Both the position numbers and the translations under genes were made by a program. A stretch of 64,000 nt of DNA from contig CAYNPO010000014.1 in assembly GCA_964399165.1 (NCBI GenBank), positions 12,147-76,146 on the forward strand, in the 5' to 3' direction. This document shows positions 13,489 to 48,866 of this stretch, piece after piece. Under the pieces are notes generated by a model. That model searched no databases. It was not told the origin of the DNA and was given only the letters and a program-made list of their open reading frames with translations. Within the stretch, counting starts at the first letter, position 1; each line of letters opens with the position of its first letter. This DNA is from an uncultured Bacteriovoracaceae bacterium (lineage in GTDB: Bacteria > Bdellovibrionota > Bacteriovoracia > Bacteriovoracales > Bacteriovoracaceae).

Positions 13489-14571
13489 TCAGCCAAGCAT
13501 ATCCAGCAATCGCCTTGCAATGGCAGGGGCCGCGGTCATGCCCGGGGATTCGATGCCGCAGGCTTCCGCATAGCCGGGCAGCGGGTTCTCAAGCCAAAAG
13601 TCTGTGTGGAGTTTCCCCTCCACCACGATTTTGCTCCGGATGCCGGCGTAGTCAGGGAAAAGCCGTGCGGGATCCACGCCTTTGAAACAGCGGAGGATCG
13701 ATGACCTCATACCGTCGAGGTCCTGGGGCTCGAGTCGGTAGTCGATGGCATCCACGTCCAACGTGTCCGGGCCAAACTTCACGTCTCCCTGGCAATCGAT
13801 GGTGGAATGGACTCCCAGTCCTTTCAGATCGGGGGGGGGGATTGGGTAATAAAGCGTTTCATGGCCCAGCTTCTGGGAGGTGCGCAGGTAATGGCCCTTC
13901 ACCCAGCGGCTCGCCATGCCCTTGAGACCGAGCTGGGTGCGGAACTCCGGTGCCCATAGGCCGGCAGCATTAACCAGGCGCGGGGCTACGATGCTAGTAT
14001 CAGCGGTGTTCACGTGGAAGACGCCCCCATCCCGCGTCGCCGTTGCGGGTGTGCCGGTGAGTACGATCCCACCAAGCTTTTCGAACTCGTGGCGGAAGAA
14101 CGCCATGGCAGAGGAAACGTCCACGATGCCCGTGCTGGCCACCACCAGCGCGTCGACGGCGTTGACGTGTGCCTGCGCCTTCCCCAGCTCGGCAGACGAG
14201 GCGCGGCGGACCGGAACGCCGTTGGCGCGGGCTTTATTCTGGAGTTCGTCCAGCCGAGGTCGTTCCGTTTCATCATGCGCGAAGACGACCTTGCCACAGA
14301 AGCGATGAGGGAGGGCATGGGCCAGCAGCAAATGGCGCCATTCGTCCAGGCCTTCCATGCACAGCCGGTGTTTCAGGGAACCCGTGGGGTAGTAGAGCCC
14401 CGAATGCAGCACCCCGCTGTTGCGCCCGGTGGAGTGGTCAGCTAAGAAGGGGGCTTGCTCCAGAAGGACGGCTTCCCACGCCCGATGACGGCGTTTGGCT
14501 TCTAGGGCGGTGAGAAGGCCGACGATACCACCGCCGATGATGACGGCGTCCACTTCCACCGGCTGGCCCAT
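13489..14571 (-). CDS. FAD-dependent oxidoreductase (DAO family, L-2-hydroxyglutarate oxidase/GlpD-like)
   Basis: VIIGGGIVGLLTA dinucleotide fold and GRNSGVLHSGLYY motif. Contains the C10 tract (G10 on the plus strand, 13831-13840). Confidence 0.8.
   Translation of the reverse strand: MGQPVEVDAVIIGGGIVGLLTALEAKRRHRAWEAVLLEQAPFLADHSTGRNSGVLHSGLYYPTGSLKHRLCMEGLDEWRHLLLAHALPHRFCGKVVFAHDETERPRLDELQNKARANGVPVRRASSAELGKAQAHVNAVDALVVASTGIVDVSSAMAFFRHEFEKLGGIVLTGTPATATRDGGVFHVNTADTSIVAPRLVNAAGLWAPEFRTQLGLKGMASRWVKGHYLRTSQKLGHETLYYPIPPPDLKGLGVHSTIDCQGDVKFGPDTLDVDAIDYRLEPQDLDGMRSSILRCFKGVDPARLFPDYAGIRSKIVVEGKLHTDFWLENPLPGYAEACGIESPGMTAAPAIARRLLDMLG
13831..13840. repeat. G10/C10 homopolymer inside the FAD-oxidoreductase CDS (encodes Pro-Pro-Pro)
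   Basis: gatc-GGGGGGGGGG-attg read directly. Position cross-checked against the ORF frame (IPPPD). It is the longest homopolymer I found in the window. Confidence 0.9.
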
Positions 14572-14577
14572 AGGTTG

Positions 14578-15291
14578 TTAGTTCCGGCCCACGGTCAGAA
14601 AGTGATCGAGGGTGGACTTGCGCAGGAGGACGTCGGTCCAGCGGTAGATGATACCGTCGGTCCCCGCGAAATTCCGTGAAGAGCCATTGCGGTCGTAGAA
14701 TACTTCCTGTTCCACCACTTGGTAGCAGCCGCTGGCGGCAAAAAGGGAGGCGTGGGACCCGAGCACCTTGAAGTTGTACACGTCCGCGTCTTTCACATGG
14801 TGGTTGCGCACCTTGATCATTTTATCGGGGTAGAAATCGCGAAGGTAGAGATGACCCCCCTCGGCGAGCAAAGCATCCACCGAGGCGACCGAAGCGAAGA
14901 TCGTCTCACGGGCCACCCAACCGAACACGTCTTCGATGACGATCAGGTCGAACTTTCCTGCATGCCCGTCTGCAAGAGGGTTACGTGACATGGTGCCATG
15001 ATGAAAGTGGATCTTGTCCCCCCAACGCGAACGCCCGTAGGCTATAGCCTTGGCTGAAGGTTCGACCCCGTGAGCTTCCTTTCCCTCGCGCTGAAAGTGC
15101 GCAAGCATGTCGCCGAAGTTGCAGCCGTATTCCAGCACGCGCTGGAAGGGGATGTTGGCTTTGGCGAGGAATGCCAGGAGTTCTTTCTTGTTGGCCCTCA
15201 GCTCAGGCAAGTCTTTGCCCTCGAAGTTGCGGGTGAAGAAGTCGTCAGCTTCCTTTCGGAGATAGTAGTCGTCTTGGACGGGGGGGATCAT
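14578..15291 (-). CDS. Class I SAM-dependent methyltransferase (resembles the pseudaminic-acid-biosynthesis-associated methylase family)
   Basis: ATGA overlap with the upstream gene. FFTRNFEG N-terminal motif and SAM motif VLEYGCNFGDML. 237 aa. Confidence 0.65.
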   Translation of the reverse strand: MIPPVQDDYYLRKEADDFFTRNFEGKDLPELRANKKELLAFLAKANIPFQRVLEYGCNFGDMLAHFQREGKEAHGVEPSAKAIAYGRSRWGDKIHFHHGTMSRNPLADGHAGKFDLIVIEDVFGWVARETIFASVASVDALLAEGGHLYLRDFYPDKMIKVRNHHVKDADVYNFKVLGSHASLFAASGCYQVVEQEVFYDRNGSSRNFAGTDGIIYRWTDVLLRKSTLDHFLTVGRN

Positions 15292-16589
15292 AGCATTGCC
15301 TCTTTGGTGTGGGCCAAGGCGCCCAGGATGTTTCCAGGCAGTAGCCGGTTGATGTTTTCGGGGCCAAAAGAAGGGTAGGGTACGCGGACGTTGCTGCCAA
15401 GTCGATCCAGGGAGTCCATGAGACCCCGCTTCACCGTCTCCGCGTCATCACGCATGAGAAAACCGCGGGGGGTTGCGAGGATATGGGCTCGGCGGACGCC
15501 GGCTGGCTCGACGAGCCCCATGGTGGAGAGATCCCTCGCCCAACGCTCACGCCAGTACTGCTCGTCCCTAGGGTACTCACCGGCGGGGAAGTTGAACTCG
15601 AGCTGGAGGGTCGGGGCGTCGTCGCCGGCGAGTTTGCCGGGGAAGCTTACCCGGTTGATCAACAGGTCCTTGGAACCAACCAGAATTTCGTGGATGTCCC
15701 TGGGGACGGGGGCTTCCAAGACATAGTGGCCAAAAACGAAGTCTTGCCCTTGCAGCCGCGGTAGGGGAATACCGAGGTTTTTCATCAATGGCGGGAGAGG
15801 CGCGCACCACAAGTACACGCGCGCGTTCCGCGTGCCGTTGGCCTGCACCGAGCGGAGCTGGCTGCCCTCGAAATTCATGGCGAAGTCGGAAGGGCCTACG
15901 ACGATTTCGACCCCAGCATTGCGAGCGAGCGCCTCCAGTCCCGTCGCCACGGCCCCAAACCCGCCGACACGGGGATAGAGCACCTGCTGGCTCCCTTGGC
16001 GCATGCGAGCATGGTAGGAGGAGGATTCGTCTTGCGCGGAGGCTGTGGACTGGGAACGTGGGAAAAACCAGGGGTAGACGGTGCCCAACAACGCTTTCTC
16101 AGGCACCCCCATTTGATCCCGCAACCATCTTTGTGATGGGTAGGAGTTTAAAACCTCCTCCGCCATGAAGTCGCTGAAAGCGGGCCCGAAGCGCCTCGCC
16201 AGTTCTGCGCGGTCCGGAGGGCCTCCGGCGGAGGCGACATCCTCTCCTACGGTGATCATCTCCCGCAAAGCACCGGGCCAGTCTTCCAAGGGAGCGTTAT
16301 AGGGGATGAGTTCTCCTCTGAGATGGATCCATCGGCACAGGGGTTGCACCTGTGCGTTACCTGCCAGGGCCTTTTCCAGCAGCCGGGTAACGAGCAGAGA
16401 GCGTCCGTAATCCAATGCGTGGTAGCCCTGGTCGAAGAAGTGCCCTTCCAACGGGTGGGATCGATTCCCGCCCCCAAGAGCAGCACCTTGCTCCACCAGC
16501 AGCACTTTCAGGCCCGCTCCTCCCAATGCGGCGGCGGCGGCCAAGCCACCTATCCCGCCGCCCAGGATGATGACGTCGTGGTCCCTCAT
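15288..16589 (-). CDS. FAD/NAD(P)-binding oxidoreductase (amine-oxidase/phytoene-desaturase-like fold)
   Basis: The track start at 16694 is an over-extension; ATG at 16589 forms an ATGA overlap with the upstream stop. DVIILGGGIGGLAAAAAL...LLVEQGAALGG. Confidence 0.75.
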   Translation of the reverse strand: MRDHDVIILGGGIGGLAAAAALGGAGLKVLLVEQGAALGGGNRSHPLEGHFFDQGYHALDYGRSLLVTRLLEKALAGNAQVQPLCRWIHLRGELIPYNAPLEDWPGALREMITVGEDVASAGGPPDRAELARRFGPAFSDFMAEEVLNSYPSQRWLRDQMGVPEKALLGTVYPWFFPRSQSTASAQDESSSYHARMRQGSQQVLYPRVGGFGAVATGLEALARNAGVEIVVGPSDFAMNFEGSQLRSVQANGTRNARVYLWCAPLPPLMKNLGIPLPRLQGQDFVFGHYVLEAPVPRDIHEILVGSKDLLINRVSFPGKLAGDDAPTLQLEFNFPAGEYPRDEQYWRERWARDLSTMGLVEPAGVRRAHILATPRGFLMRDDAETVKRGLMDSLDRLGSNVRVPYPSFGPENINRLLPGNILGALAHTKEAML

Positions 16590-17236
16590 CCTTCGTGCTC
16601 CACGATGCGGGAGTGCCCATAGTCTTTCAGCAGCAGAGTAGTGGCGCAGCGCTCGGCTTCTGGCGGCGTACCGGAGCCTGCGGCGTGGGACCAACTGGCT
16701 TTTTCCAACAGAGAGTAAAAAGGGAAACCCAGGAAGATCTGGGCGTGGTCTTCTTTGTAGGACTTCGCCCCTGGGTGGTGGCGGTAGTTGCGCTCGCGAG
16801 GGTACTTGGCGTCGAAATCCATGATGGCGAGGATGCCCCCGTTTTTAAGCCGGCGATCCGCCTCGCACACCACGCGGGGTAGAAGGGGACGGTCCACCAG
16901 GTAAAGACAGAATCCGAAAAGCACCAAGTCGAATTCATCTGCGACGCCTTCCAGGGCGTCGGCAGTGGCGTGGTGAAACTGGCCTTCGGGTAAAGCCACG
17001 CGCGCCGCTTGCACCGCCTCTGCGGAGGGATCCACCCCAGTCACTCGGCAACCCGTCCATTGGCGGAGCAAGGCGAGGTTATGGCCATCCCCACAACCGA
17101 TCTCCAGCACGGAAGAGGAGGTACCCAAATACTTGCGCAGACATTCAAGTTTTCCTGGGGGGTCATGCCGGGGACCGCGGTTACGGCGAAACCACGCGTC
17201 TCCTTCTCCGGCAAGGAACAACTCTTTCTGTTTCAT
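16586..17236 (-). CDS. Class I SAM-dependent methyltransferase (pseudaminic-acid-associated methylase-like)
   Basis: The track start at 17380 is an over-extension; ATG at 17236 forms an ATGA overlap. GEGDAWFRRN N-terminal motif and SAM motif VLEIGCGDGHNL. Confidence 0.7.
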   Translation of the reverse strand: MKQKELFLAGEGDAWFRRNRGPRHDPPGKLECLRKYLGTSSSVLEIGCGDGHNLALLRQWTGCRVTGVDPSAEAVQAARVALPEGQFHHATADALEGVADEFDLVLFGFCLYLVDRPLLPRVVCEADRRLKNGGILAIMDFDAKYPRERNYRHHPGAKSYKEDHAQIFLGFPFYSLLEKASWSHAAGSGTPPEAERCATTLLLKDYGHSRIVEHEG

Positions 17237-18573
17237 AGGATTTTCCTGAAGACTGGCCGTGCGGGATCTCCGATGAGGAAATTCGCATAGCCTTGTTCCA
17301 AGCCTGCCGCATAGACGGGCAGGCAAGCCTCGAAGGCGGTGAGGAAAAAGGAGGTTTCGTTTTCTCCGTGGGAGAAGCACGGGACGAATACACCTTGGAA
17401 GAGGACGCCCCGTTTGATCATTTCTTGCATGAACAAGGTACGCAGGCCGGCGTCGGCGGCGCCTGTATTGTCTGTGAAGGCGAAGCCAAGCATCCAGGGG
17501 GTATCCGTTACCTTGATGGAAGAAGCCAAACCCGCTTTCGCGAGGGCAGCGCGAACGCCGTCTCTAACCTTCGCCCCGGCGGCGTGGTTGTGCGCGACCA
17601 CATTCTTCTCGCGGAATTCGGCGATGGTGGCGAGGCAGGCAGCCATAGCGTGGGTTTCGCCCCCGTGGGTAGAAGAAATGAGGAAGACTTTTTCCTGCCC
17701 ATGGCGGCGGATGCCACCCAACTCCATTATGTCTTTTTTGCCCGTCAGAGCACAGAACGAAAAGCCGTTGGCGATACCTTTACCCCAGGTAGCCAAGTCC
17801 GGCGCGAGGCGTCCCTTGGCGATGGAACCGGGAAAGGCTGTTTTGAAGCCGGTGATCATCTCGTCCATGATGGAGAGGGCACCGTAGCGGTGGCAGAGGC
17901 TGGTGATCTGGTCGAAGTAGTCAGGGGCGGGGGGATCGAACTGCGCGCGCTCCGGTTCCGAGATCACGCAGGCGATCTTTCCCGGGTGTTCCAGAAATAG
18001 CCTTTCCAGCGCCGCTAGGTCCCCAGAAGGGAAGGTGAAGGCCATTTCTTTCCAAGGGCCTGGCACTCCTCGATCGCAGGCGGTGCTGCCGATGAACCAA
18101 TCATCGTAGGAAAAGAACGGGTGGTCGGAGGGAAAAGCCACATGAGTGCGACCGGTGTGCGCCCGCGCCAGCTTGACTGCGGCGGTGGTAGCGGTGGAAC
18201 CGTTCTTGGCGAACTTGATCATGTCGTGGCCGGGTACCAGCGAGAGAAAACTCTCTGCCATGGTTTTCTCCAGAACCGATGGCCGCTGGAAATTTACCCC
18301 GTTTTCCAACTCGGCCCTCACCGCGTTGAGGACCGGCCGGTAGGCGTGGCCGAGACTCACGGAGGTGAGGCCCATCGAGCAGTCCAGAAACTTGTTGCCA
18401 TCCACGTCCCACAGCCAAGCCCCTTCACCGCGACGGATGGCGGCGGGTGCGAGCCAGGGGAACTGGTCGTCCCCCTTGCTGTAGGTGTGGGCACCACCAG
18501 GAATGAGGTCGTGTACACGCTCGCGGTAGGCGAACGAAGCGGTGAAGTTTTTTTCGCTCAGGAGGTCAGCCAC
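17233..18573 (-). CDS. Class-III PLP aminotransferase, glutamate-1-semialdehyde 2,1-aminomutase-like
   Basis: GTG start with AAGGGAG 5 nt upstream. DLIPGGAHTYSKG, DVDGNKFLD, IMDEMITGF and TWGKGIANG (PLP Lys) motifs. Confidence 0.8.
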   Translation of the reverse strand: MADLLSEKNFTASFAYRERVHDLIPGGAHTYSKGDDQFPWLAPAAIRRGEGAWLWDVDGNKFLDCSMGLTSVSLGHAYRPVLNAVRAELENGVNFQRPSVLEKTMAESFLSLVPGHDMIKFAKNGSTATTAAVKLARAHTGRTHVAFPSDHPFFSYDDWFIGSTACDRGVPGPWKEMAFTFPSGDLAALERLFLEHPGKIACVISEPERAQFDPPAPDYFDQITSLCHRYGALSIMDEMITGFKTAFPGSIAKGRLAPDLATWGKGIANGFSFCALTGKKDIMELGGIRRHGQEKVFLISSTHGGETHAMAACLATIAEFREKNVVAHNHAAGAKVRDGVRAALAKAGLASSIKVTDTPWMLGFAFTDNTGAADAGLRTLFMQEMIKRGVLFQGVFVPCFSHGENETSFFLTAFEACLPVYAAGLEQGYANFLIGDPARPVFRKIL

Positions 18574-19294
18574 GCATGCTCCCTTGGTTGCGCTCGTGGT
18601 GGTGGTTTAAGGCCCGAAGGCTCGCATCCTCCCGCAAGCTGCGGACGTAGTCCTCCCACGGGGCGTCGGGACCGTGCCGCTCCAGGAGTTTTTCCACCAA
18701 CTGGAGGTCTTCCGGCAAGTCGACCGTCATGCGCAGGCCTGAATCGTCCCGGGACTGCGTGACGTTGAGGATCGCGAAACCGTGAGCAGGATCTCGCAGG
18801 AACGGGGTTACGTGCTCGCGCTCGAAGGGGTGCTGGGCTTCCCGCCAGGCTTTCTCGAGGGCCTTGAAGGTGAATACTTCTGTGTCCAGACCGTCCGCGA
18901 ATGTCGGGGGGGCGATGTTGCTGGTGTAGTCTGCGCCCCCGTCAAGGTGGGCCTTCACTACGCGGTCCACCATGGAGCCATCATTCAACGGGCAGTCGGA
19001 AGTCACCCGCACCACGTGATCCACCCCCATGCCTGCCGCCGCCTGGTAAAAGCGATCCAAGACGTCTTGAGTCGATCCCCGGTATCCCAGAAATCCCGCT
19101 TGTCGGGCCTCTTCCGCGATCGCGGCGGCCTCGGGTTCCATTGTGGTGGCCACAAGGAAATGGGTGGGAAGACGGGCGCGCTTCAATCGCCTAAGGTGGA
19201 GGCTTAGCATGGTGCCATCCGCGATTTTCTGCAAAACTTTCCCGGGAAAACGGGAGGAGCCATAGCGGGCCTGGGTGATCAGTAAGATCTTCAC
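18566..19294 (-). CDS. SpsF-type cytidylyltransferase (CTP:sugar acid cytidylyltransferase family)
   Basis: GTGA overlap with the upstream gene. LITQARYGSSRFPGKVL and VRVTSDCPL motifs are typical of SpsF-like CMP-sugar synthetases. Confidence 0.75.
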   Translation of the reverse strand: MKILLITQARYGSSRFPGKVLQKIADGTMLSLHLRRLKRARLPTHFLVATTMEPEAAAIAEEARQAGFLGYRGSTQDVLDRFYQAAAGMGVDHVVRVTSDCPLNDGSMVDRVVKAHLDGGADYTSNIAPPTFADGLDTEVFTFKALEKAWREAQHPFEREHVTPFLRDPAHGFAILNVTQSRDDSGLRMTVDLPEDLQLVEKLLERHGPDAPWEDYVRSLREDASLRALNHHHERNQGSMRG

Positions 19295-20136
19295 GTGTTA
19301 GCCCACTGCCGGGGATCGATCACCCTCGGGTCGGTTTCTGCCAAGGAGGAGAAATCCGCTCGGGCGGCGGTGGCGAAGGCGGCATGCACTTGCTCAAGTT
19401 CACGCGCGGTGGTGGCACCCACCACCGCACAAGTAATGTGGGGATGGTTGGCGACGCAGCCTGCCGCAAGCGCGAGGGGGGAGGTTCCGAGGTCAAGTGC
19501 CCGGCGCTGGAATCGTTCGTGTGCCGCGCTCAGGATGGAGTTAGGTCGGGCGGGAGGGGCCAACAAGAGTCCCTGCAGGAAAATCGAACGTGCGTGGATC
19601 TCCACTCCACCGCGGGCGAGATTCGCCAGCAAACCCCCTTCGTCAAAAGATTGGTTGAGTGCGTTGTAAGGGAGTTGCACCAGGTCTGCTCCCACCTCGT
19701 CCATGATGCGGACGAGTTCGCGTGGTTCGTAGACCGAGACCCCGGTCATTTGCGCCAGGCCTTCGCCTTTGAGTCGGCGGAACATCTCCCGGTAGGCCTC
19801 CGGCTGCGCCAGCACGTCTGACGGGTCGTGCGCTAGAACAGCATGGAAACCCGCCACCCCAAGCGTCTGCGCGTCTGCCCGCATCTCTGCCTCGGCGGTG
19901 GACAGAGTTTTAAACTTGTTGATGAAGCGGAAGGGGCGGGGTGTGGGGAGTGAAGCGCCCAACACGGCCACCGCCTCACCGTAGACGTGGGATGTGTCCA
20001 ACGTGCGGATTCCCAATGTGCGGGCGCGCTCCAGCAGGCCAGCCGCGGCGGGGCCCGTCACCTGGCCTGCAGAATTGGTGATGCCGTAGGGGAGTCCCAG
20101 TTGGACCGTGCCCAGCACCAGCTCCATCAGAGGCAC
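19291..20136 (-). CDS. Aldo/keto reductase
   Basis: LGTVQLGLPYG and LDTSHVYGE motifs. The start is either GTG at 20136 or ATG at 20127 (TGATG junction). Confidence 0.75.
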   Translation of the reverse strand: MPLMELVLGTVQLGLPYGITNSAGQVTGPAAAGLLERARTLGIRTLDTSHVYGEAVAVLGASLPTPRPFRFINKFKTLSTAEAEMRADAQTLGVAGFHAVLAHDPSDVLAQPEAYREMFRRLKGEGLAQMTGVSVYEPRELVRIMDEVGADLVQLPYNALNQSFDEGGLLANLARGGVEIHARSIFLQGLLLAPPARPNSILSAAHERFQRRALDLGTSPLALAAGCVANHPHITCAVVGATTARELEQVHAAFATAARADFSSLAETDPRVIDPRQWANT

Positions 20137-21209
20137 TTCAGGACGGCGGCAACCACCTTGTCTTGGCTGGCTTCGTCCAAGTAGGGGTGCATAGGAAGAC
20201 TGACCACGCGCTCCGCGGCCCGCTCGGCGTGCGGGAAATCTCCCTTCTTGTGCCCCATTCCCCGATAAACCGGCTGGAGGTGCAAGGGCGTGGGGTAATG
20301 GACGGCCGTGGGGATGCCCAGCTCCGTCATGCGCTTGATGAATCCCTCGCGGTCGTCTACCTCGATGGTGTACTGGCCATAGACGTTGGTGTAGCCGGCG
20401 GGCAGGGCCTGGGTGCGCGCTTTCCCCTTGAGAAGTTCCGTGTAGCGTGCGCCGATGCGTGCACGCTTCTCGACTTCCGCGGGGAAGATTTCCATCTTCG
20501 CCAGCAAGATAGCCGCCTGGAGCGTGTCGATGCGGCCATTGATGCCAATACGGGTATGGTGGTAGCGCTTTTCCTGCCCGTGCAGGCGGATCTCACGCAT
20601 CGCCTGCGCCAGAGCGTCGTCATCGGTGAAGGTAGCACCGCCGTCCCCATAACCGCCCAATGGCTTAGATGGGAAGAAGCTGGTGCAGCCGAACTTCGAG
20701 AGCGCGCAGGACTTCTTGCCTTTGTAAGTGGCTCCGAAGCTTTGGGCGGCGTCCTCGATGACGGGAAGCGCCCCGGCAGCGGCATCGAGGGCATCCATGT
20801 CTGGGCATAGTCCATAGAGGCTGACAGGCATGATGGCCTTGGTGCGTGGAGTGATCGCGCCTTGGACCCGGGCGGGATCAATGTTGTAAGTCGTGGGGTC
20901 AATGTCCACGAACACTGGCTTGGCGCCTGCCAACGAAATCATTTCCCCCGTGGCGAAGAAGGTAAATGGCGTGGTGATCACCTCATCGCCTGCGCCGATG
21001 CCCAGGGCCATAAGGGGGAGGAGCAGTGCGTCAGTTCCGCTTGAATTAGCGATGCAATGCTTAGCTCCCACATATTTCGCCAATTTATCCTCGAGCTCTT
21101 TGACTTCAGGCCCCATGATGTACTGGCCGTGCGCCAAAACACGTTGGATCCCCTCGTTGAGAGCGCCCGAGATGAGTTTCTGCTGGGTCTTCAGATCGAT
21201 GAATTCCAT
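20127..21209 (-). CDS. wbpE: DegT/DnrJ/EryC1-family aminotransferase, WbpE/WlbC-like (UDP-2-acetamido-2-deoxy-3-oxo-glucuronate aminotransferase)
   Basis: The likely start is the ATG giving MEFIDLKTQQ (21209); the track start at 21251 is TTG. GPEVKELEDKLAKYVGAKH and FFPSKPLGGYGDGG (PLP Lys). Confidence 0.8.
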   Translation of the reverse strand: MEFIDLKTQQKLISGALNEGIQRVLAHGQYIMGPEVKELEDKLAKYVGAKHCIANSSGTDALLLPLMALGIGAGDEVITTPFTFFATGEMISLAGAKPVFVDIDPTTYNIDPARVQGAITPRTKAIMPVSLYGLCPDMDALDAAAGALPVIEDAAQSFGATYKGKKSCALSKFGCTSFFPSKPLGGYGDGGATFTDDDALAQAMREIRLHGQEKRYHHTRIGINGRIDTLQAAILLAKMEIFPAEVEKRARIGARYTELLKGKARTQALPAGYTNVYGQYTIEVDDREGFIKRMTELGIPTAVHYPTPLHLQPVYRGMGHKKGDFPHAERAAERVVSLPMHPYLDEASQDKVVAAVLKCL

Positions 21210-21271: not shown

Positions 21272-22234
21272 ATGAAGAATTTCGCCGTTATCGGGGTGGG
21301 CGGTTATATTGCCCCCCGCCACCTGGAAGCGATCGTAAAAACCGGCAACCGGATCGTGGCCGCACTAGACCCCAACGACTCCGTCGGCATCTTGGACCGC
21401 TTCGCCCCCGACGCCCGCTTTTTCACCAGCCCTGAGGATTTCGAGGCTTACCTCCAAGACATCAAGGGGACCGGGGATGAAGTCCATTTCGTCAGCATCT
21501 GCTCCCCCAATCATCTCCACGCTAGCCACATCAAGATGGCCTTCCGCCACGGCGCCAACGCCATTTGCGAGAAGCCCATCGTACTGACCATCGACGAGAT
21601 CGAGGAACTCAAGGGTCTGGAGAAACAGACTGGGTGCCAGGTCTACACCATTCTCCAGCTGCGCGTTCACGACGCCATCCTGGCACTCAAGAACAAGATC
21701 GCGCGGTCAGGCAAGGCCATCCACGACATCGAGCTGACCTACATCACCTCCCGCGGTGACTGGTACCACCGTTCTTGGAAGGGAGACGACCGCAAGTCCG
21801 GTGGGCTCACCACCAACATTGGGGTGCACTTCTTCGACATGATCACCTGGATCTTCGGACACCCCTCCTCCAGCCGCGTGATGGCCAAGACCCAGACGTG
21901 CGCCGCCGGGGCGCTGGAGCTTGAGCGCGCCAGCGTGAAATGGTTCCTTTCCGTGGACCGTGCGCACTTGCCTCCCCAGGCAGGCTCGAAGACCACCTTC
22001 CGTAGCCTCAAGATCGACGGTGAGGAGTTTGAATTCTCCGAGGGGTTCACCGACCTGCATGTGGTGGTCTACAAGTCCATCCTCGGCGGAATGGGGTACG
22101 GTCTCAACGACGTCTCCCCCGCCATCCGAATCGTGGAAGGTATCCGCCACATGGAGCCAGAGCGCTCCGATGAGGTTTTCTTGCACTCGCTTGCGGGCGG
22201 TTGTCACGAACGCCACGTCACTGCCAGCTGGTGA
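21272..22234 (+). CDS. wbpB: Gfo/Idh/MocA oxidoreductase, WbpB/WlbA-like (UDP-GlcNAcA 3-dehydrogenase)
   Basis: SD GAAGGGAG upstream. [23 protein letters not shown] and YITSRGDWY. Divergent from the wbpE-like gene. Confidence 0.8.
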
Positions 22235-22239
22235 GCGTC

Positions 22240-22809
22240 ATGGCCTACCAAGCGCACCCCACCGCCATCATCGATGAGGGGGCCCAGGTGGGCGACGGGT
22301 GCCGGGTGTGGCATTGGGTCCACATTTCAGCCAAGGCCAAGATCGGCAAGAGCTGCTCCTTCGGACAGAACGTCTTTGTAGGCAACAACGTTACGATTGG
22401 CGACAACTGCAAAATCCAGAACAACGTCTCGATCTACGACAACGTTCACCTCGAGAGCGACGTTTTCTGTGGTCCCAGCATGGTCTTCACAAACGTCTAT
22501 AACCCGCGCTCCCAGTTCACGCGCAAGGACGAGTACCGCGACACACACGTGAAAAAGGGTGCCACCATCGGCGCCAATGCCACCGTCGTGTGCGGCGTGA
22601 CCTTGGGCGAGTATTGCTTCATCGCTGCTGGCGCGGTGGTGAACCGCGACGTTCGGCCCTACGCCCTCATGGGCGGCGTGCCCGCGCGGCAGCTGGGATG
22701 GATGAGCCGCTTCGGTGAACGCATCAAGTTCGGCGCCGACGGTTCCTACACCTGCCCCCACACCGGGGACGTCTATCGTTTGCGGGGCGACCATGTGGAG
22801 CTGGGCTGA
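22240..22809 (+). CDS. wbpD: Hexapeptide-repeat N-acetyltransferase, WbpD/WlbB-like
   Basis: ATG at 22240, 5 nt after the wbpB stop (the track start at 22201 overlaps wbpB). Left-handed beta-helix repeats [35 protein letters not shown]. Confidence 0.8.
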
Positions 22810-34376: not shown

Positions 34377-35450
34377 ATGATGCCGCCTCTGGGATTCTTA
34401 CACGGGAGTAGAGTGAACGCGCCGGTCATTCCCCATTCATGCCCCTGGACCACGCCACAGGACGGTCAAGTCGCCCAAGCGGCGCTAGAGACCGGGATGC
34501 TGGCCCATGGAGTGAGGGTCCGTAGAATTGAGGAGGACCTAGGCGAGCATTTCCCGGACGCGGATGTGGAGCTCGTTTCTTCCGGAAGCGCGGGACTGGT
34601 GCTCGCACTTCGTTGCGTGGGCGTGGTCGCGGGTGATGAAGTTATCGTCCCCACCTACGTGTGCCGAGACGTGGCCCGCGCGGTAGAGTTCTTGGGGGCA
34701 CAGGCGGTGTTTGCCGACGTGGGCTCGGACTGGTGCCTAGATCCAACTGACGTCCGCCAGCGCATAGGTCCTCGCACTCGCGCTATCGTGGCAGTGCACA
34801 CCTTCGGCATCCTGTCGGACGTGGAGAGCTTGAAGGCGAACGGGTTGCCCGTCGTGGAGGACTGCGCCCATGGTTTTGGCCTGGGCCCCCTCCAGCCATA
34901 TGGTAATCGTGGGGACGTGGCCGTGCTGTCCTTCCAATCCACCAAGTTCTTGTCATCGGGCGAGGGTGGGGCGGTCATTGTCCGCTCCCCGCGTGCCCGC
35001 GCGGCGCTACGCGGTTGGCGTGGGAATGACAATCCCTTCCGTTGCTCCGATTGGACTGCGGCACTCCTCGCCACCCAATTGGGCCGCTTCGAAGAAATCC
35101 ATGCTGCGCGCGTACGACTGTCGGAGAAATTCTTCCAGGCCCTCCCCGCAAAGGTAACGGACCCATTACGCCAAACCACTTCCGTTTTCTTTCGCTTCCC
35201 CCTCACCGTTGAGAATATGGACTTTCCGCGCGCGCAAGCGGCAGGTCTCGCTAGGGGGATCGCGGTCCGTAGGGGTGTAGACGATCTCCTTCACCGGGTG
35301 GCAGGGCACGATGATGCGGGCTATCCGGGCGCCTGTCGCGCCTTCGCGAGTACTCTCTCCTTCCCTTTCTACCCGGCCTTGACTGAATCGCAGCTTGCTC
35401 GTGTACTTGAGGCCGCACCAGGCATTCTCCAGGAGGCGGTAGGTGGGTAG
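34377..35450 (+). CDS. DegT/DnrJ/EryC1-family aminotransferase
   Basis: DEVIVPTYVCRDVARAV, VVEDCAHGFG and SFQSTKFLSSGEGG (PLP Lys). The exact start is uncertain (ATG at 34377 or 34380, or GTG at 34413). Confidence 0.75.
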   Translation: MMPPLGFLHGSRVNAPVIPHSCPWTTPQDGQVAQAALETGMLAHGVRVRRIEEDLGEHFPDADVELVSSGSAGLVLALRCVGVVAGDEVIVPTYVCRDVARAVEFLGAQAVFADVGSDWCLDPTDVRQRIGPRTRAIVAVHTFGILSDVESLKANGLPVVEDCAHGFGLGPLQPYGNRGDVAVLSFQSTKFLSSGEGGAVIVRSPRARAALRGWRGNDNPFRCSDWTAALLATQLGRFEEIHAARVRLSEKFFQALPAKVTDPLRQTTSVFFRFPLTVENMDFPRAQAAGLARGIAVRRGVDDLLHRVAGHDDAGYPGACRAFASTLSFPFYPALTESQLARVLEAAPGILQEAVGG

Positions 35451-36840
35451 CCACGTCATCGTAGGCACTGGGATTACCGGTCTCATAGGCGCCCTTCTCC
35501 TGCGTGAGCGGAATCCCCGCGACCGCATTGTCCTGGTGGAACGCGAAAGCCAGGTGGGTGGCTTGCTGAAGAGCTACCGTTACGAAGGCGGTTTGGTCTT
35601 CGACCACGGGATGCATAACTTTAACCAGGTGGGCATTCCCGAATTGGATCAACTGCTATGGGAACTGCTGGAAGACGATTGGCTGGTGCTGGAAGGCCCT
35701 AAGCGCGACTTGGCTGGCCTATACTTCGACGGACGCCTACAGGAGAACAGCATTTACCCCGACATCCGCCACTTTCCAGTGGCTGAGCGCCAACGTGCGG
35801 TGGATGAGCTCATGTCTATCAGGCGGGAAGGGCGTGCCGCCGACTTTGCGAACGTCTATGCTTATGGGACGACCCACCTAGGTCCGACCTTGCGCGAGCG
35901 TGTGGTGCGGCCCTCACTGGAGAAAATCTTCGGTCATCCCATTGAGAAACTGCATTTTACCGCCGCCACCATCGCACCTATGGAACGCGTGGTTGCCTTT
36001 GATTTGCCGGAGATGCATAAACTCCAGCAGGATCCTTCCCTGCGCACATGTTTGGCCTTCACCGAGCAAACGCAATTGCCTTTACAATTCTCTTCCGGCC
36101 GCAAGAGTTATTACCCGAAGAAATTTGGCACCTGGCGGATCCTGGAGGCCATTGAGGCGCGACTCAAAGCCGCTAAAGTGGATATCATGACTGGCCACAC
36201 AGTGGATGGTTTGGAGATGAGGGACGGACGTCTGTCCAGCCTGCGCATCGTCCCCGTGGCGGGTGGTGCACCCGTCTTGGTAGAGGACCCCGGAACCTTC
36301 CTGTGGACCACCGGTTTCCCCCAGCTTTATAAACTGCTTTTTGGGAAATTCCCTGCGGACAAGCCTGACCCCCTGAGGAAGACCGTACTAGCGAATTTAG
36401 TCCTTAGCCGGCCGTTGGCATGCGGGGAACTCCAGTACTTCCATTGTTATGATCCCGCCTTCCGCACGTTCCGCGTGAACAACTACGCCAATTACTGCCC
36501 GGCCGCCAAGAACCCCCTGGGGTACCCGGTCTGCGTCGAGATGATCGTGGACGAGGCGGAACTCACCAGCGTGGACCTGCTCCAAGTGGCGAAGGACGAG
36601 CTGGGCCGCATGTGCGGCACTCCCCCCGGCGATATCGTGTTCGGGAAACTGGAAGTGCTAAGGGAGGCCTTTCCCATGCCGACGCTGAAGAACCTGGGTA
36701 TCATCGGGGGCATGCGCCACGAGATCAAGGCCCTGGGGCTCGCCAACTTGGTGGTGGCCGGCATCCTGTCTGAGGACAACCTGTTCTTCCAACGGCATGT
36801 GCTGCCGGACCTGCACCGTAAACTCACCGAGGCTACATGA
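35443..36840 (+). CDS. FAD/NAD(P)-binding oxidoreductase (amine-oxidase/protoporphyrinogen-oxidase-like fold)
   Basis: GTG start with an 8-nt overlap. VIVGTGITGLIGALLL...IVLVERESQVGG. Confidence 0.75.
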   Translation: MGSHVIVGTGITGLIGALLLRERNPRDRIVLVERESQVGGLLKSYRYEGGLVFDHGMHNFNQVGIPELDQLLWELLEDDWLVLEGPKRDLAGLYFDGRLQENSIYPDIRHFPVAERQRAVDELMSIRREGRAADFANVYAYGTTHLGPTLRERVVRPSLEKIFGHPIEKLHFTAATIAPMERVVAFDLPEMHKLQQDPSLRTCLAFTEQTQLPLQFSSGRKSYYPKKFGTWRILEAIEARLKAAKVDIMTGHTVDGLEMRDGRLSSLRIVPVAGGAPVLVEDPGTFLWTTGFPQLYKLLFGKFPADKPDPLRKTVLANLVLSRPLACGELQYFHCYDPAFRTFRVNNYANYCPAAKNPLGYPVCVEMIVDEAELTSVDLLQVAKDELGRMCGTPPGDIVFGKLEVLREAFPMPTLKNLGIIGGMRHEIKALGLANLVVAGILSEDNLFFQRHVLPDLHRKLTEAT

Positions 36841-37988
36841 ACACCGACTCCACCCTCGATCTTGGCGAGCTCCACTTCTACTGGCGGACCGCCCCCTCGC
36901 CCGCGCCTGAGCCCGGCATTCCAGTAAAGCTACCGCTGACCCTAGGTTTTGATCACGAGCTGGGCCTGTTGAAGCAGCTGGTGCGGCCGGAGACGCTGGA
37001 CGCCCTCAGGAAAGTCTATCAGCTCAGCTACAACATCGGTTACCTGCAGGAAGGGCACGCCCTCGCGGAAGCCTACGGCGCATCTTTCCGACGCTTCCTA
37101 GGGGAACATGCCCCGCTCGAAGGCAAAAAGCGGGTGCTCGAGATCGGCTGTGGGGCCGCTCTGCTGCTCAAGGAATTGAAAGAGTGTGGCCATGAGGTGG
37201 AGGGCGTCGACCCCAGCCCCGTGGCAAAAGAGGCCTGTGCCCGTTACGGCATCAAGTTCACCCCCGGCTTTTATGGGCCGACTCACGGGACTGGCTACGA
37301 TTTCATTTATCACCACAACGTGCTGGAGCACGTGGAGGATCCCCTGGAGTTTCTGCGGTGGAACCACTCCCACCTCGCCGAAGGCGGCCGGGTGGTAGTG
37401 GGGGTGCCCGACTGTACAGAGAGCGTGGCTAAAGGCGACGTTTCCATAGTCTGGCACGAACACATCAGCTACTTCGATGGGGAATCCCTCGGAAACATGT
37501 TGGCCAAGGCGGGCTTTACCGACGTGACGGTGGCGCGCTCCACCTATGGTGGTCTCCTATATGGCACCGGCGTGGTCCGTGCCGGCGCCGCCATCCCCAC
37601 GTTCCGGCGCACCCCGGGGAAATTCAACTCGTTTCGTGAAGGCTTCAATGAGCGCCGCCGTCGGGTGGAGGCCCATGTGCGAGGAGTGCTCAACCAGCCG
37701 GGAGCCACCCTCGGCTTGTATGTGCCCCTGCGCCTCATCGCCTATCTTTCCCTCATGAACTTGGATCGGGCCCAACTTTCACGGCTGCGTTTCTTCGACG
37801 ACGATACTGGCTCCCAAGGCAAGTACTACGACGGCTTCCCAGTGAAGATCGAAGGGCTGGAGGGCCTTAAGTCTGACCCACCCAGCCATGTGCTTATCGG
37901 TTCCGCCAATTTTGGCGCCGTGATCAAAAGCAAAATCCAGGACGCAGTGGGCAGCCGGACTATCGTACACACCCTCTTGGACGTCTGA
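36837..37988 (+). CDS. SAM-dependent methyltransferase with C-terminal sugar C-methyltransferase-like domain (TylC3-type architecture)
   Basis: ATGA overlap with the upstream gene. SAM motif VLEIGCGAALLL, NVLEHVEDP and VWHEHISYF. Confidence 0.65.
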   Translation: MNTDSTLDLGELHFYWRTAPSPAPEPGIPVKLPLTLGFDHELGLLKQLVRPETLDALRKVYQLSYNIGYLQEGHALAEAYGASFRRFLGEHAPLEGKKRVLEIGCGAALLLKELKECGHEVEGVDPSPVAKEACARYGIKFTPGFYGPTHGTGYDFIYHHNVLEHVEDPLEFLRWNHSHLAEGGRVVVGVPDCTESVAKGDVSIVWHEHISYFDGESLGNMLAKAGFTDVTVARSTYGGLLYGTGVVRAGAAIPTFRRTPGKFNSFREGFNERRRRVEAHVRGVLNQPGATLGLYVPLRLIAYLSLMNLDRAQLSRLRFFDDDTGSQGKYYDGFPVKIEGLEGLKSDPPSHVLIGSANFGAVIKSKIQDAVGSRTIVHTLLDV

Positions 37989-37990
37989 AG

Positions 37991-38704
37991 ATGGAACCAC
38001 TGTTCGCTCTGACCTTCGACTTGGACTGGGCCCCCGACGAAGTGGTGGCTTATGCGGTCCAACCGGCTCTGGAGGCGGGGATTCCTGTCACGCTTTTTGC
38101 CACCCACCGCAGTCCCTATGTGCTTTCCTTGCTGGAGGCCCATCCGAATTTGGTGGAAGTTGGGCTCCACCCCAATTACAACCCTTATTTCCTGAACCAG
38201 GGGCAGGCGGATTGGCGGGGGCTCCTGCGTGAGCTGCGGGGCCACTACCCCGGCGCCGTGGGCGTCCGCGCGCACTCCCACGTCGTGAGTTCCCATCTCC
38301 TGGCACACTACCAGGAGGAAGGCTTCAGGTATGAGAGCGGGATCTACGCTGATAACGCTAGTGGGCTCGTACCCTTGCCCTACGACCGGGGCTTCACGCG
38401 CCTTCCACACTTCTTTCAGGACGACGCTCATCTTCTGCGCGATCGTCCTTTCGCGCTTTCCGCCCTCGAACTCGCCTCGCCGGGGCTTAAAATCTTCGAT
38501 TTCCACCCGGTGCACGTTTTCCTCAACACGCAGTCGCTCCAACATTATGAGGAGTCCAAGCGCCACTACCAGGATCCGGCTGGTCTGGCGTCTTGCCGGG
38601 GCCGAGGGCCGGGCGTAGGGGAGCTGTACGGCCACGTGTTGGAATACCTGAAAGCGCGGCCAGGCCGAACCCTCCGCTTAGCGGACGTTGTCCTGGGCGA
38701 TTGA
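37991..38704 (+). CDS. Polysaccharide-deacetylase-like protein (WbmS-type; weak)
   Basis: LTFDLDWAPDE and RAHSH motifs are loosely CE4/NodB-like. 237 aa. Confidence 0.4.
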   Translation: MEPLFALTFDLDWAPDEVVAYAVQPALEAGIPVTLFATHRSPYVLSLLEAHPNLVEVGLHPNYNPYFLNQGQADWRGLLRELRGHYPGAVGVRAHSHVVSSHLLAHYQEEGFRYESGIYADNASGLVPLPYDRGFTRLPHFFQDDAHLLRDRPFALSALELASPGLKIFDFHPVHVFLNTQSLQHYEESKRHYQDPAGLASCRGRGPGVGELYGHVLEYLKARPGRTLRLADVVLGD

Positions 38705-41771: not shown

Positions 41772-41846
41772 GGCAGGGCGGTGGAGATATCGCGGTAATT
41801 ATGCGAAAAAGGACGGCAAGCCGGCGATAGGAATAAGGATGTGCAG

Positions 41847-42827
41847 ATGGGTCGTGTTCTCGTGTCAGGGGCGGATGGCTTCATAGGTTCCCACCTCACG
41901 GAGTACCTGGTTTCCCTTGGGTGGGAAGTCCGCGCCATGTGCCTCTACAATTCCTTCAACTCCTGGGGCTGGCTCGACCACAGCCCAGTGAAAAACCAGG
42001 TGGAGGTCATCACTGGGGACGTTCGGGACCCGCGCTTTTGCCGTGAAGCGGTTCGGGGAGTCGACACGGTCATGCACCTGGCGGCCCTGATCGCCATCCC
42101 ATATTCCTACCGCGCGCCAGACAGCTACGTGGACACCAACGTCAAGGGCACGCTGAACCTGGTGTCGGCGGCCATGGATGCGGGCGTGACAAAATTTCTC
42201 CACACCTCCACCAGCGAAGTTTACGGGAGCGCCCTGCAGGTCCCCATCTCCGAAACCCATCCGTTCCAACCGCAATCCCCCTACAGCGCCAGCAAGATCG
42301 CCTCCGATATGATGGCGCTGAGCTTCCACCACGCCTTCCAGTTCCCGGTGACGGTGGTGCGCCCCTTCAACACCTATGGACCGCGCCAGTCCGCACGCGC
42401 GGTGATCCCCACCATCATTTCCCAGCTCGCAGCTGGCAAGCGAGAGATCCGGCTGGGCGACCTACGCCCCACTCGCGACTTCAACTACGTCGAGGACACC
42501 TGCCGCGGCTTCGCTGACATCGCCCGTGCCCAAAACGTGGGGGGGGAAACCTTCAACGTGGGCTCGGGGGGAGAAATTTCCATCGGAGATCTGTTCCACC
42601 GCATTCAAAGCATCATGGGCACCAACGCCGAGTTAGTCCGCGACGAGGAGCGTTTGCGGCCAGAAGCTTCTGAGGTCATGCGCCTGGTGTGTGACCGCTC
42701 ACGTTTACAACGGTTGACCGGCTCCGTTCCCCAGGTCTCCCTGGACGAAGGGCTCAAGCGCACCGTCGCGTGGTTCACTGAGCCCGCTAACCTGCGGCTG
42801 TACAAGACGGACATCTACAATGTTTGA
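41847..42827 (+). CDS. legB: NAD-dependent 4,6-dehydratase LegB (legionaminic acid pathway)
   Basis: ATG at 41847 with AAGGA 7 nt upstream (the track start at 41841 is GTG). VSGADGFIGSHL, CLYNSFNSWGWLD, ALIAIPYSY, STSEVYG, QPQSPYSASKIASD, RPFNTYGPRQSARAVIPTII and the YKTDIYNV end closely recall Campylobacter LegB. Confidence 0.85.
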   Translation: MGRVLVSGADGFIGSHLTEYLVSLGWEVRAMCLYNSFNSWGWLDHSPVKNQVEVITGDVRDPRFCREAVRGVDTVMHLAALIAIPYSYRAPDSYVDTNVKGTLNLVSAAMDAGVTKFLHTSTSEVYGSALQVPISETHPFQPQSPYSASKIASDMMALSFHHAFQFPVTVVRPFNTYGPRQSARAVIPTIISQLAAGKREIRLGDLRPTRDFNYVEDTCRGFADIARAQNVGGETFNVGSGGEISIGDLFHRIQSIMGTNAELVRDEERLRPEASEVMRLVCDRSRLQRLTGSVPQVSLDEGLKRTVAWFTEPANLRLYKTDIYNV

Positions 42828-45844: not shown

Positions 45845-45846
45845 CG

Positions 45847-48122: not shown

Positions 48123-48866
48123 ATGGACAAAAACCAAGTGCAAGAGTTTCAGGAAAAAGGCTACACCAAGGTCGCGGGTTTCTTTACCCCGCAGGAAGTG
48201 GCTGAAATCAACCGCCACGTGCAGGAGTACGTCGACGGACGGGCCCGCGAACTTTCCGGACGCGACATAAACTTCTCCAGTGGCGTTCCCAACTCCATCC
48301 ACAAACTATGGAACCCAGGCGAGAAGAACTTCTTCAACACTTTCGCAGCCTCCGAGAAATTAATGGAGCTGGTCCGCCCTTTCCTGAATGACGACCCAGA
48401 GTTGCGCGCTTCCGAGCTCTTCCTCAAACCCGCTAAGGTGGGTTTGCCCAGCCCCCACCACCAGGACAACTTCTATTGGTGTCTGGATGACGCTAACGGC
48501 TTGACGGTGTGGGTGGCGCTGGTGCCGTGCGGTCCTGAAAACGGCGGCATTTTCTACTACGAAGGCTCGCACAAGATGGGCATCCTCGCGCACAAGGATT
48601 CCTTCGCCCCCGGATCTTCCCAGACAGTTAAAGACCTGGGGGAGATCGGGCATTTGAAGAAAGTGGTGCCCTCCCTGGTACCCGGGGACGTGTTGCTCCA
48701 CCACTCCCTAACGGTTCATGGCAGCGACGCCAACACCAGTGACTTTCCCCGCAAGGGTTGGACCATCCAGTACAAGGCGAAGAGTTCGGTCTACAACAAG
48801 GACATGCTCAACCACTATAACAACCGGTTGGCCGAGCAGGTGAAGGCGCGCGAGGAACGGCGCTAG
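48123..48866 (+). CDS. Phytanoyl-CoA dioxygenase (PhyH)-family Fe(II)/2-oxoglutarate oxygenase
   Basis: SD GGGAG upstream. HHQDNFYW (HxD) and LTVHGSDAN (distal His). Confidence 0.75.
   Translation: MDKNQVQEFQEKGYTKVAGFFTPQEVAEINRHVQEYVDGRARELSGRDINFSSGVPNSIHKLWNPGEKNFFNTFAASEKLMELVRPFLNDDPELRASELFLKPAKVGLPSPHHQDNFYWCLDDANGLTVWVALVPCGPENGGIFYYEGSHKMGILAHKDSFAPGSSQTVKDLGEIGHLKKVVPSLVPGDVLLHHSLTVHGSDANTSDFPRKGWTIQYKAKSSVYNKDMLNHYNNRLAEQVKAREERR

Follow-up and report, generated by a model that had tools for sequence, protein, structure and literature searches.

A wbpE–lhgO-like gene pair probably split by a pseudaminic acid activation and tailoring cassette in a surface-glycan island of an uncultured Bacteriovoracaceae bacterium

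Nonulosonic acids are found on flagella, capsules, and lipopolysaccharides, where they influence recognition by phages and immune systems. The stretch of DNA analysed here (the window; 64,000 nucleotides of an uncultured Bacteriovoracaceae bacterium, GenBank assembly GCA_964399165.1, contig CAYNPO010000014.1, positions 12,147 to 76,146) is a single long surface-glycan island, and a block of tightly coupled minus-strand genes within it raises the question of which sugar these genes make and whether they serve one pathway. An initial annotation had described seven of them, downstream of a wbpE-like gene, as one tailoring operon with no assignable product. With a probability of roughly 70%, the block is one transcription unit in which a wbpE–lhgO pair is split by a six-gene cassette for the activation and tailoring of pseudaminic acid (Pse), and the predicted product is a Pse that is activated with cytidine monophosphate (CMP) and further modified, probably by extra amination and methylation. 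The phrase "no assignable product" was therefore too strong, because the pathway class, Pse activation plus tailoring, is assignable, whereas the exact product, as had been stated, is not.

Eight minus-strand open reading frames (ORFs) are chained from 21209 to 13489, with overlaps of 1–10 nt and a single gap of 6 nt as read from the sequence:

20127-21209, minus strand: g0, wbpE, orthologue of uridine diphosphate (UDP)-2-acetamido-2-deoxy-3-oxo-glucuronate aminotransferase, first gene of the transcription unit
19291-20127 (ATG start) or 19291-20136 (GTG start), minus strand: g1, aldo/keto reductase (AKR; PF00248), first of the six cassette genes
18566-19294, minus strand: g2, SpsF/COG1861-type cytidylyltransferase (PF02348), probable CMP-pseudaminate (CMP-nonulosonate) synthetase
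17233-18573, minus strand: g3, GSAM-like class-III aminotransferase of the PRK06209 type, dependent on pyridoxal phosphate (PLP; PF00202, NF004856)
16586-17236, minus strand: g4, class-I S-adenosylmethionine (SAM) methyltransferase MT1 (Methyltransf_25/23/11)
15288-16589, minus strand: g5, flavoprotein of a rare family with a fold like PPOX and UDP-galactopyranose mutase (UGM), N-terminal NAD_binding_8/Amino_oxidase
14578-15291, minus strand: g6, class-I SAM methyltransferase MT2 (Methyltransf_23/12/25), fixed partner of g5
13489-14571, minus strand: g7, LhgO/L2HGDH-like oxidoreductase of the DAO family, using flavin adenine dinucleotide (FAD; PF01266)

The wbpE/AKR junction is TGATG with a 1-nt overlap (10 nt with the alternative GTG start at 20136), the AKR/SpsF junction is a GTGA overlap, SpsF and aminotransferase overlap by 8 nt, the aminotransferase/MT1, MT1/flavoprotein, and flavoprotein/MT2 junctions are ATGA each, and the 6-nt gap lies between MT2 and the LhgO-like gene. 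The tight coupling of seven minus-strand genes to the upstream wbpE-like gene was thus borne out in every ORF, position, and junction; start/stop overlaps of this kind are frequent in comparable operons and unremarkable alone. Scans for consensus promoters and terminators inside the block gave nothing above chance. An assembly chimera as the source of the composite was rejected in view of the exact gene-to-gene couplings and the uniform composition. Pfam and NCBIfam concur with the initial family calls for the genes of the block, except that the proposed likeness of g4 to a Pse-associated methylase is weak (TIGR03587, 28 bits against a cut-off of 112 bits), while its assignment as a class-I SAM methyltransferase stands.

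The company that g1, g2, and g3 (hereafter the trio) keep in other genomes indicates the pathway to which they belong. In 80 loci holding a g3 homologue, drawn from several phyla and read with 10-kb flanks, an AKR and an SpsF-type gene were each present in 69, a PseI-type synthase in 65 (median identity of 57% to the PseI of the window), PseC in 56 (median 49%), and PseB in 52 (median 61%). The usual order is pseB-pseC-AKR-SpsF-aminotransferase-(GNAT)-pseI, and SpsF::aminotransferase fusions are common, for instance in Flavobacterium. The trio has been seen in Pse loci before without being characterised, and it is among the most widespread unassigned additions to the Pse pathway, occurring in Bacteroidota, Bdellovibrionota, Acidobacteriota, Aeromonas, and Legionella. 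It has been drawn as an AKR/"pseF"/class-III aminotransferase layout, with functions not given, in the group I polar-flagellin islands of Aeromonas (PMC7874193), and the same layout occurs in Legionella pneumophila serogroups 6 and 12 (PMC3694923); a Vibrio Pse cluster contains an SpsF::AKR fusion (PMC7371886). In the Aeromonas islands, the three families likewise follow one another in this order, between pseC and pseG, but there the trio lies inside the pse operon by maf and flagellin genes, with no flavoprotein and with one methyltransferase in some subgroups, whereas the trio of the window is separated from the pse core by about 35 kb.

The full set of six families also recurs. It was found together in the flagellin-type island L194 (FliW-CsrA-PseB-PseC-x-PseI-formyltransferase-...-FAD-MT-MT-AKR-SpsF-AT, where FAD, MT, and AT are flavoprotein, methyltransferase, and aminotransferase), in the flagellin-type island L186 (FliD-PseB-AKR-SpsF::AT-epimerase-NeuB-...-MT-FAD-MT-Maf-FliS), and in the metagenome contig P0124 (FAD-MT, PseB, DegT-AKR-MT-SpsF::AT). 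Judged by these gene orders, g1–g6 are a portable, recurrent unit; in other genomes it is embedded in Pse operons, frequently within flagellin glycosylation islands. Within the 80 loci, homologues of g4 (34–39% identity) stand beside the trio in nine, and a g5-like gene in none. Among 40 related genomes, g5 was found in none and g7 and g3 in three each, never together.

The flavoprotein and its two methyltransferases extend the trio. The methyltransferases g4 and g6 are 30% identical to each other, and Pfam flavin-binding models match g5 only over its first ~60 residues, which hold the N-terminal dinucleotide-binding motif. The AlphaFold2 model of g5 (predicted local distance difference test 89) has PPOX and eukaryotic UGM as its best folds (template modelling score 0.64–0.72, 12–18% identity); in this model, g5 shares the PPOX/UGM fold class, and it is no sequence-level member of either family. 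The family is small: a word-indexed search returned 66 homologues, all at 41% identity or less, and an exhaustive HMMER search of 1.84 billion representatives gave 33 clusters at E <= 1e-30. The surroundings of g5 homologues were read in five distinct contexts, and in four of these (L087, L088, L186, and L194) a g6-like methyltransferase at 46–50% identity follows directly; the exception is Afipia, where the nearest methyltransferase lies ~5 kb away. PseB adjoins the g5 homologue in four of the five contexts, and the trio or its aminotransferase is nearby in four. As far as these contexts go, the rare flavoprotein–methyltransferase pair is a recurrent extension of the cassette. A loose analogy is offered by MnmC, in which a flavin domain unmasks an amine and a methyltransferase domain then methylates it. 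As a separate observation, a protein of 654–676 aa without a Pfam match precedes the g5-like flavoprotein in L087 (6721-8685) and in the P0124 contig, with weak similarity (E = 3e-4) to 50856-51212 of the window and none to the Maf protein of L186.

The other features of the window on which the argument draws are the following:

21272-22809, plus strand, divergent from the block: wbpB (21272-22234; GFO_IDH_MocA) and a wbpD-like acetyltransferase gene (22201-22809; hexapeptide repeats)
41841-48046: legionaminic acid (Leg) row legB-legC-formyltransferase-neuB-neuC-ptmE
49648-50454, minus strand: NeuA/LegF/PseF-type cytidylyltransferase gene after the Leg row, on the opposite strand (TIGR03584, 97.7 bits; PF02348 partial)
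55265-56545, minus strand: pseG (TIGR03590, 232 bits, above the curated cut-off)
56333-57376, plus strand: pseI (TIGR03586, 498 bits, above the curated cut-off)
57460-58485, plus strand: pseB (TIGR03589, 511 bits, above the curated cut-off)
58349-59635, plus strand: pseC (TIGR03588, 440 bits, above the curated cut-off)
59642-60283, minus strand: formyltransferase gene beside pseC

The two ends of the transcription unit probably belong to another pathway. The product of g0 matches the WbpE structures of Pseudomonas aeruginosa (3nu7/3nyu) over its full length with 450 bits (PF01041, 386 bits), and the divergent neighbour of g0 likewise matches the WbpB structures over its full length (3o9z, 350 bits; 3oa2, 315 bits); by this similarity, together with the linked hexapeptide acetyltransferase and TviB-like dehydrogenase, they are assigned to WbpE and WbpB of the UDP-GlcNAc3NAcA pathway. 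The last gene, g7, has a DAO fold (PF01266, 204 bits) but falls outside LhgO proper, with 197.1 bits to model NF008726, under its cut-off of 299 bits, and a match limited to residues 8–271; its nearest structures are 3dme, an uncharacterised Bordetella protein (164 bits), and 8w75, an L2HGDH (117 bits). A run of ten G at 13831-13840 (ten C on the coding strand, encoding Pro-Pro-Pro) lies inside g7, where the initial annotation had considered slipped-strand switching possible; in this sequence, the reading frame is unbroken.

Two metagenome contigs, L093 and L094, are syntenic with the window and share WbpE (79–81% identity), WbpB (79–81%), WbpD (74–79%), the UDP-sugar dehydrogenase (80%), and an epimerase (76–77%), and L094 additionally shares a second epimerase (94%), DegT (86%), and AsnB (73%). 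In both, the g7 homologue (64–65%) comes directly after wbpE with a spacer of ~220–325 nt, while in the more distant L095, there is an overlap between wbpE (67%) and the gene related to g7 (51%). These closest g7 homologues (51–65% identity) all stand immediately behind wbpE, opposite wbpB-wbpD, and the six genes are absent in between. In a metagenome scan with a g7 alignment, the hits were mostly distant DAO-family proteins (27–41% identity) outside sugar loci, and the sole informative one was L183, in which wbpB-wbpD-wbpE is followed by a g7-like gene at 37% identity. Similarity to g1–g6 was found in none of L093, L094, L095, and L183, and no remnants of cassette genes were found in the wbpE–lhgO spacers of L093 and L094. 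Meanwhile, an LhgO-like gene accompanies the trio in none of the 80 loci. Read from synteny, g7 is functionally tied to wbpE and wbpB and is no member of the cassette or of a C5-acyl pathway, and the seven genes form two functional units within one transcription unit rather than a single pathway. The initial proposal that the HemL-like and LhgO-like enzymes jointly supply a C5 glutamate-type N-acyl group accordingly loses its footing. Insertion of the cassette between wbpE and the lhgO-like gene is a simpler explanation than three lineages each having lost it cleanly and independently, though this is not a proof; GC and GC3 of the cassette do not differ from those of its neighbours and give no sign of foreign origin.

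It has been reported that WbpB of P. aeruginosa reoxidises its tightly bound NADH with 2-oxoglutarate, releasing D-2-hydroxyglutarate (D-2-HG), and that lost or blocked 2-HG catabolism lowers the O-antigen of this species (PMC8651671). Because of the wbpE–g7 synteny and this chemistry of WbpB, g7 is read as a probable recycling enzyme of the Wbp module. The window shares WbpE and WbpB with the Wbp pathway of P. aeruginosa (WbpA-WbpB-WbpE-WbpD; WlbA-C in Bordetella), in which WbpB makes 2-HG from 2-oxoglutarate; in P. aeruginosa, D-2-HG is removed by an unlinked D2HGDH of another fold, whereas here an LhgO-like DAO-family enzyme is encoded within the wbpE operon itself.

How the nonulosonate is likely to be activated can be read from the inventory of cytidylyltransferases. 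The product of g2 scores 91.6 bits to PF02348 against a gathering threshold of 22.6 and 130 bits to structure 6oew, a "cytidylyltransferase"; residues R10, S13, R15, and K19 of the R-x-x-S-x-R-x-x-x-K motif are at least 90% conserved in 70 homologues, and D100-C-P is conserved as well. By its PF02348 score and this nucleotide-binding motif, g2 belongs to the SpsF/COG1861 type (CTP_transf_3), and it gives no match to the PseF model TIGR03584, whose cut-off of 205.7 bits the protein encoded at 49648-50454 also fails to reach. The window holds no pseF in its pse gene set despite pseG, pseI, pseB, and pseC, and only three genes of the CTP_transf_3 family occur in the whole genome (3.2 Mb, 37 contigs), namely a KdsB-like gene on a different contig, g2, and the gene next to the Leg row. 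Because pseG-pseI-pseB-pseC are present without pseF, g2 is the likely CMP-pseudaminate synthetase of the Pse pathway in the window, and SpsF-type genes take the position of pseF in other loci. The link to a CMP-activated nonulosonate drawn in the initial annotation is supported both by this gap and by the presence of PseI, PseB, and PseC with the trio in most of the 80 loci. There are precedents for such enzymes. In Bacillus subtilis, legionaminic acid can be made without spsF, but its transfer requires this gene (PMC7439481), and FlmC, a Caulobacter crescentus enzyme with no PseF homology, completes a six-enzyme Pse pathway rebuilt in Escherichia coli (PMC7591256). Both are non-PseF-type cytidylyltransferases of nonulosonate pathways and fit g2 as a CMP-nonulosonate synthetase, but unlike the cassette of the window, their pathways need no AKR or second aminotransferase. 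Compared with the canonical PseB-PseC-PseH-PseG-PseI-PseF pathway of Campylobacter jejuni and Helicobacter pylori, the window shares PseB, PseC, PseG, and PseI above their cut-offs but has a formyltransferase beside pseC in place of a GNAT-type PseH and g2 without a PseF-model match; the AKR, the second aminotransferase, the two methyltransferases, and the flavoprotein have no canonical counterpart. In addition, the cassette elsewhere shares an operon with the Pse core, whereas here it sits inside the wbpE operon, ~35 kb from the pse core genes (55265-60283).

The aminotransferase g3 might have been a tetrapyrrole enzyme, and the initial annotation had asked whether it is the only HemL of the organism. 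It scores 125 bits to PF00202 and 527.6 bits to NF004856 (the PRK06209-type "GSAM" family, cut-off 486 bits), of which it is a member, and 186.6 bits to the HemL equivalog TIGR00713, under the cut-off of 527.3 bits. A gene on contig C11 of the same genome reaches 472 bits to TIGR00713 and is the better HemL candidate, so that g3 is neither the only candidate nor the housekeeping enzyme. The family name "GSAM" is an annotation only, and the members of NF004856 sit in Pse-type clusters. K265 of g3 aligns with the PLP lysine of the GSAM structure 6w80 and is invariant in 13 homologues; from its class-III fold and K265, g3 is assigned as a PLP enzyme, which does not thereby make it a mutase. The g3 family is large and unusually conserved, with 59–66% identity across Bacteroidota, Bdellovibrionota, Acidobacteriota, Ignavibacteria, and others. 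A homologue at 45% identity on pNGR234b of Sinorhizobium fredii NGR234 sits outside any Pse cluster; the K-antigen locus of this strain has RkpN, a PseF-type enzyme (PMC7591256). A relative at 46% identity on a Shinella sumterensis plasmid (CP132317.1, 9983-17469) is flanked by a short-chain dehydrogenase/reductase (SDR), a DUF4910 protein, a methyltransferase, a glucose-1-phosphate cytidylyltransferase, and a PIG-L deacetylase, and represents a different aminotransferase subfamily in a CDP-sugar context.

From gene content, junctions, family membership, synteny, and co-occurrence, a pathway in two modules can be proposed, every catalytic step of which is a prediction. In the first module, WbpE (g0), WbpB-WbpD, and the TviB/WbpA-like dehydrogenase would make UDP-2,3-diacetamido-2,3-dideoxy-hexuronic acid, and g7 would oxidise the WbpB by-product 2-hydroxyglutarate back to 2-oxoglutarate. 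The second module, g1–g6, would be a mobile Pse activation and tailoring cassette of 5.5 kb placed between wbpE and g7. Here g2 would CMP-activate the nonulosonate supplied by PseB, PseC, PseG, and PseI of the window, and g1 and g3 may act just before or after activation, converting a hydroxyl group to an amino group via a keto intermediate, most plausibly at C8. The product of g1 is assigned to the AKR superfamily by 61.3 bits to PF00248 against a gathering threshold of 24 and by the catalytic tetrad D44, Y49, K71, and H100, kept in at least 90% of 70 homologues. Because SpsF is found fused both to the aminotransferase and to the AKR, the trio enzymes are likely to work one after another on the sugar, either free or bound to CMP. 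Finally, g4, g5, and g6 could be responsible for one or two methylations and for a single oxidation or rearrangement that depends on flavin.

The closest analogy for the middle steps comes from Acinetobacter baumannii prophages, in which EpaA (CTP_transf_3::AKR) and the SDR EpaB convert Pse5Ac7Ac to 8-epi-Pse5Ac7Ac via a C8 keto intermediate (PMC12053666). There, a CTP_transf_3 and an Aldo_ket_red domain work jointly on Pse, and both families are adjacent here, but the partner of EpaA is an SDR, whereas the block has no SDR and an aminotransferase in that place, so that it does not belong to the EpaA/EpaB group. The likeness of g1 and g2 to EpaA is one of domain families; the Acinetobacter phages in a phage collection searched with g2 gave no match. 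Because an omega-transaminase-like enzyme replaces the EpaB-type SDR, conversion of the C8 hydroxyl (a methyl carbinol) to an amine may be suggested by analogy. The Kdo8N pathway of Shewanella similarly turns a hydroxyl into an amine on an ulosonic acid, by KdnB oxidation and KdnA transamination, and serves as an analogy only, since it uses an iron alcohol dehydrogenase, another aminotransferase class, an 8-carbon sugar, and a primary alcohol.

Known glycans bear on the same point. The Pse5Ac7Ac residue has a mass of 316 Da, and an odd nominal mass means an odd number of nitrogens. The nonulosonic acid of Flexibacter maritimus is reportedly, in the primary structure paper, an 8-amino form. The flagellin of Aeromonas hydrophila AH-1 carries a Pse-like glycan of 403 Da (PMC4691044), and this strain belongs to the island subgroup in which the AKR and the aminotransferase are the sole additional genes (PMC7874193). 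The AH-1 mass is odd and lies 87 Da above Pse5Ac7Ac, and a third nitrogen is therefore implied. A pentadeoxy nonulosonic acid has been described in the O-antigen of F. maritimus (PMC4052302); both cases are compatible with extra amination and prove nothing. It is hypothesized, tentatively and as something that is on balance rather doubtful, that the cassette makes a CMP-Pse bearing a third amino group, which would most probably sit at C8 and then be methylated, and that g5 performs a novel step on a CMP-nonulosonate. If this were true, these would be the first genes for triamino nonulosonic acids and would open a route to unexplained flagellin sugars of the 403-Da type.

Several other explanations of the block can be weighed against the same evidence. 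The cassette might carry out EpaA/EpaB-like stereochemical or redox editing, in which oxidation of the CMP-nonulosonate to a keto form is followed by AKR reduction to the epimer, or an amine is removed by the aminotransferase and the resulting ketone reduced by the AKR to a hydroxyl, with no nitrogen gained; this would suit the way in which the EpaA fusion and its SDR make 8-epi-Pse (PMC12053666), the usual role of AKRs as reductases, and the intact tetrad of g1, but it is unlikely, given that the constant third partner of the trio is a PLP aminotransferase with an intact lysine and not an SDR, and that the AH-1 glycan, from a subgroup with only the AKR and the aminotransferase as extras, is an odd-mass species 87 Da heavier than Pse5Ac7Ac and no isomer of it. 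It is decidedly unlikely that the cassette serves the Leg pathway of the window, or both nonulosonates, with the enzyme encoded at 49648-50454 as PseF. That enzyme does score best against the PseF model (97.7 bits), SpsF of B. subtilis acts in the Leg pathway (PMC7439481), and the distance from the cassette is shorter to the Leg genes than to the Pse genes; yet the partners of the trio elsewhere are like PseI, PseB, and PseC at the median identities given above, a Leg-type NeuB is the best match in only 17 of the 80 loci, at 29% identity, and the 49648-50454 gene stands directly at the end of the Leg gene row.

The proposal that all seven genes build and methylate a glutamate-derived (C5) N-acyl group on a CMP-nonulosonate, like N-methyl-glutamyl legionaminic acid, draws on their common direction and tight coupling, the two methyltransferases, and the nonulosonate genes in the same window. 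It has become very improbable, because the trio travels without an LhgO-like gene while the nearest g7 relatives are coupled to wbpE without the cassette, the block encodes neither an ATP-grasp enzyme nor any other amide ligase that could attach an amino-acyl group, and g3 keeps its 59–66% identity across phyla in clusters without C5-acid enzymes. Modification of the WbpE product or of another UDP-hexuronic acid instead of a nonulosonate, for example by N-methylation of the 3-amino group, would explain the translational coupling of wbpE and g1, but is scarcely credible when three syntenic relatives have the Wbp genes without the cassette and the cassette elsewhere accompanies Pse genes, Maf, and flagellar genes, with Wbp genes being rare near the trio (WbpB in 3 and WbpE in 2 of the 80 loci).

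The preferred reading, a Pse cassette inside a wbpE–lhgO pair, also meets with contrary points. For the Wbp module, the product of WbpB is D-2-HG, whereas g7 resembles L-2-HG oxidases, and g7 homologues at 50% and 42% identity are found outside sugar loci. Regarding activation, 7 of the 80 trio loci also carry a NeuA/PseF-type cytidylyltransferase, so that the SpsF type may not simply replace PseF, and the 49648-50454 enzyme, as the best scorer against the PseF model, could serve the Pse pathway. The idea of extra amination is argued by analogy, AKRs normally reduce carbonyls and the trio has no obvious oxidase, and full-text literature searches found no paper assaying the AKR or the aminotransferase. 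As for the cassette, the aminotransferases of L186 and L194 are only 30–34% identical to g3, and insertion here is indistinguishable from clean loss in the relatives.

Particular to this window are the wbpE-cassette-lhgO composite, its separation from the pse core, and the extension of methyltransferase, flavoprotein, and methyltransferase with its rare flavoprotein. The composite indicates that the cassette can be relocated as a whole, apart from the pse core genes, and that the LhgO-like gene is to be read with WbpB and WbpE, apart from the trio, which supports built-in recycling of a by-product in a classic O-antigen pathway. No general principle is changed by these findings.

The rest of the island consists of further glycan genes. 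Beyond wbpB-wbpD lie an ABC exporter, an epimerase, DegT, a methyltransferase, an AsnB-type amidotransferase, and a FemAB-like protein, and on the other side of the block lie the TviB/WbpA-like UDP-GlcNAc 6-dehydrogenase (578 bits against a 592-bit cut-off) and an epimerase. Between this epimerase and g7, the segment 8301-13487 encodes an esterase-like protein, a 451-aa protein, a pentapeptide-repeat protein, and a sulfatase-family membrane protein, where the syntenic contigs L093 and L094 hold only an ORF of 105–147 aa; a second insertion into this conserved frame is suggested. A second operon at 34377-38704 contains DegT, an amine-oxidase-fold flavoprotein (35443-36840), a methyltransferase (36837-37988), and a WbmS-like deacetylase, and its flavoprotein and methyltransferase have no relation to g5 and g6 detectable by BLASTP.

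Within the Pse set, the longest pseG ORF (426 aa, TTG start) overlaps the divergent pseI start by ~210 nt, and the PseG model covers only its residues 87–364, so that the real start is probably further in. Formyltransferases at 43860-44843 in the Leg set and at 59642-60283 in the Pse set stand where the N-acetyltransferases LegH and PseH would be expected, which suggests N-formylated legionaminic and pseudaminic acids; formylated CMP-nonulosonates have been reported in Ca. Kuenenia beside a similar arrangement of deacetylase and formyltransferase genes (2026 preprint, SugarBase). Candidate tailoring enzymes are also found next to both nonulosonate sets, namely a radical-SAM/SPASM-like protein adjoining pseG (54156-55268) and, at the end of the Leg row, a PhyH-type 2-oxoglutarate dioxygenase (48123-48866) followed by a methyltransferase on the opposite strand.

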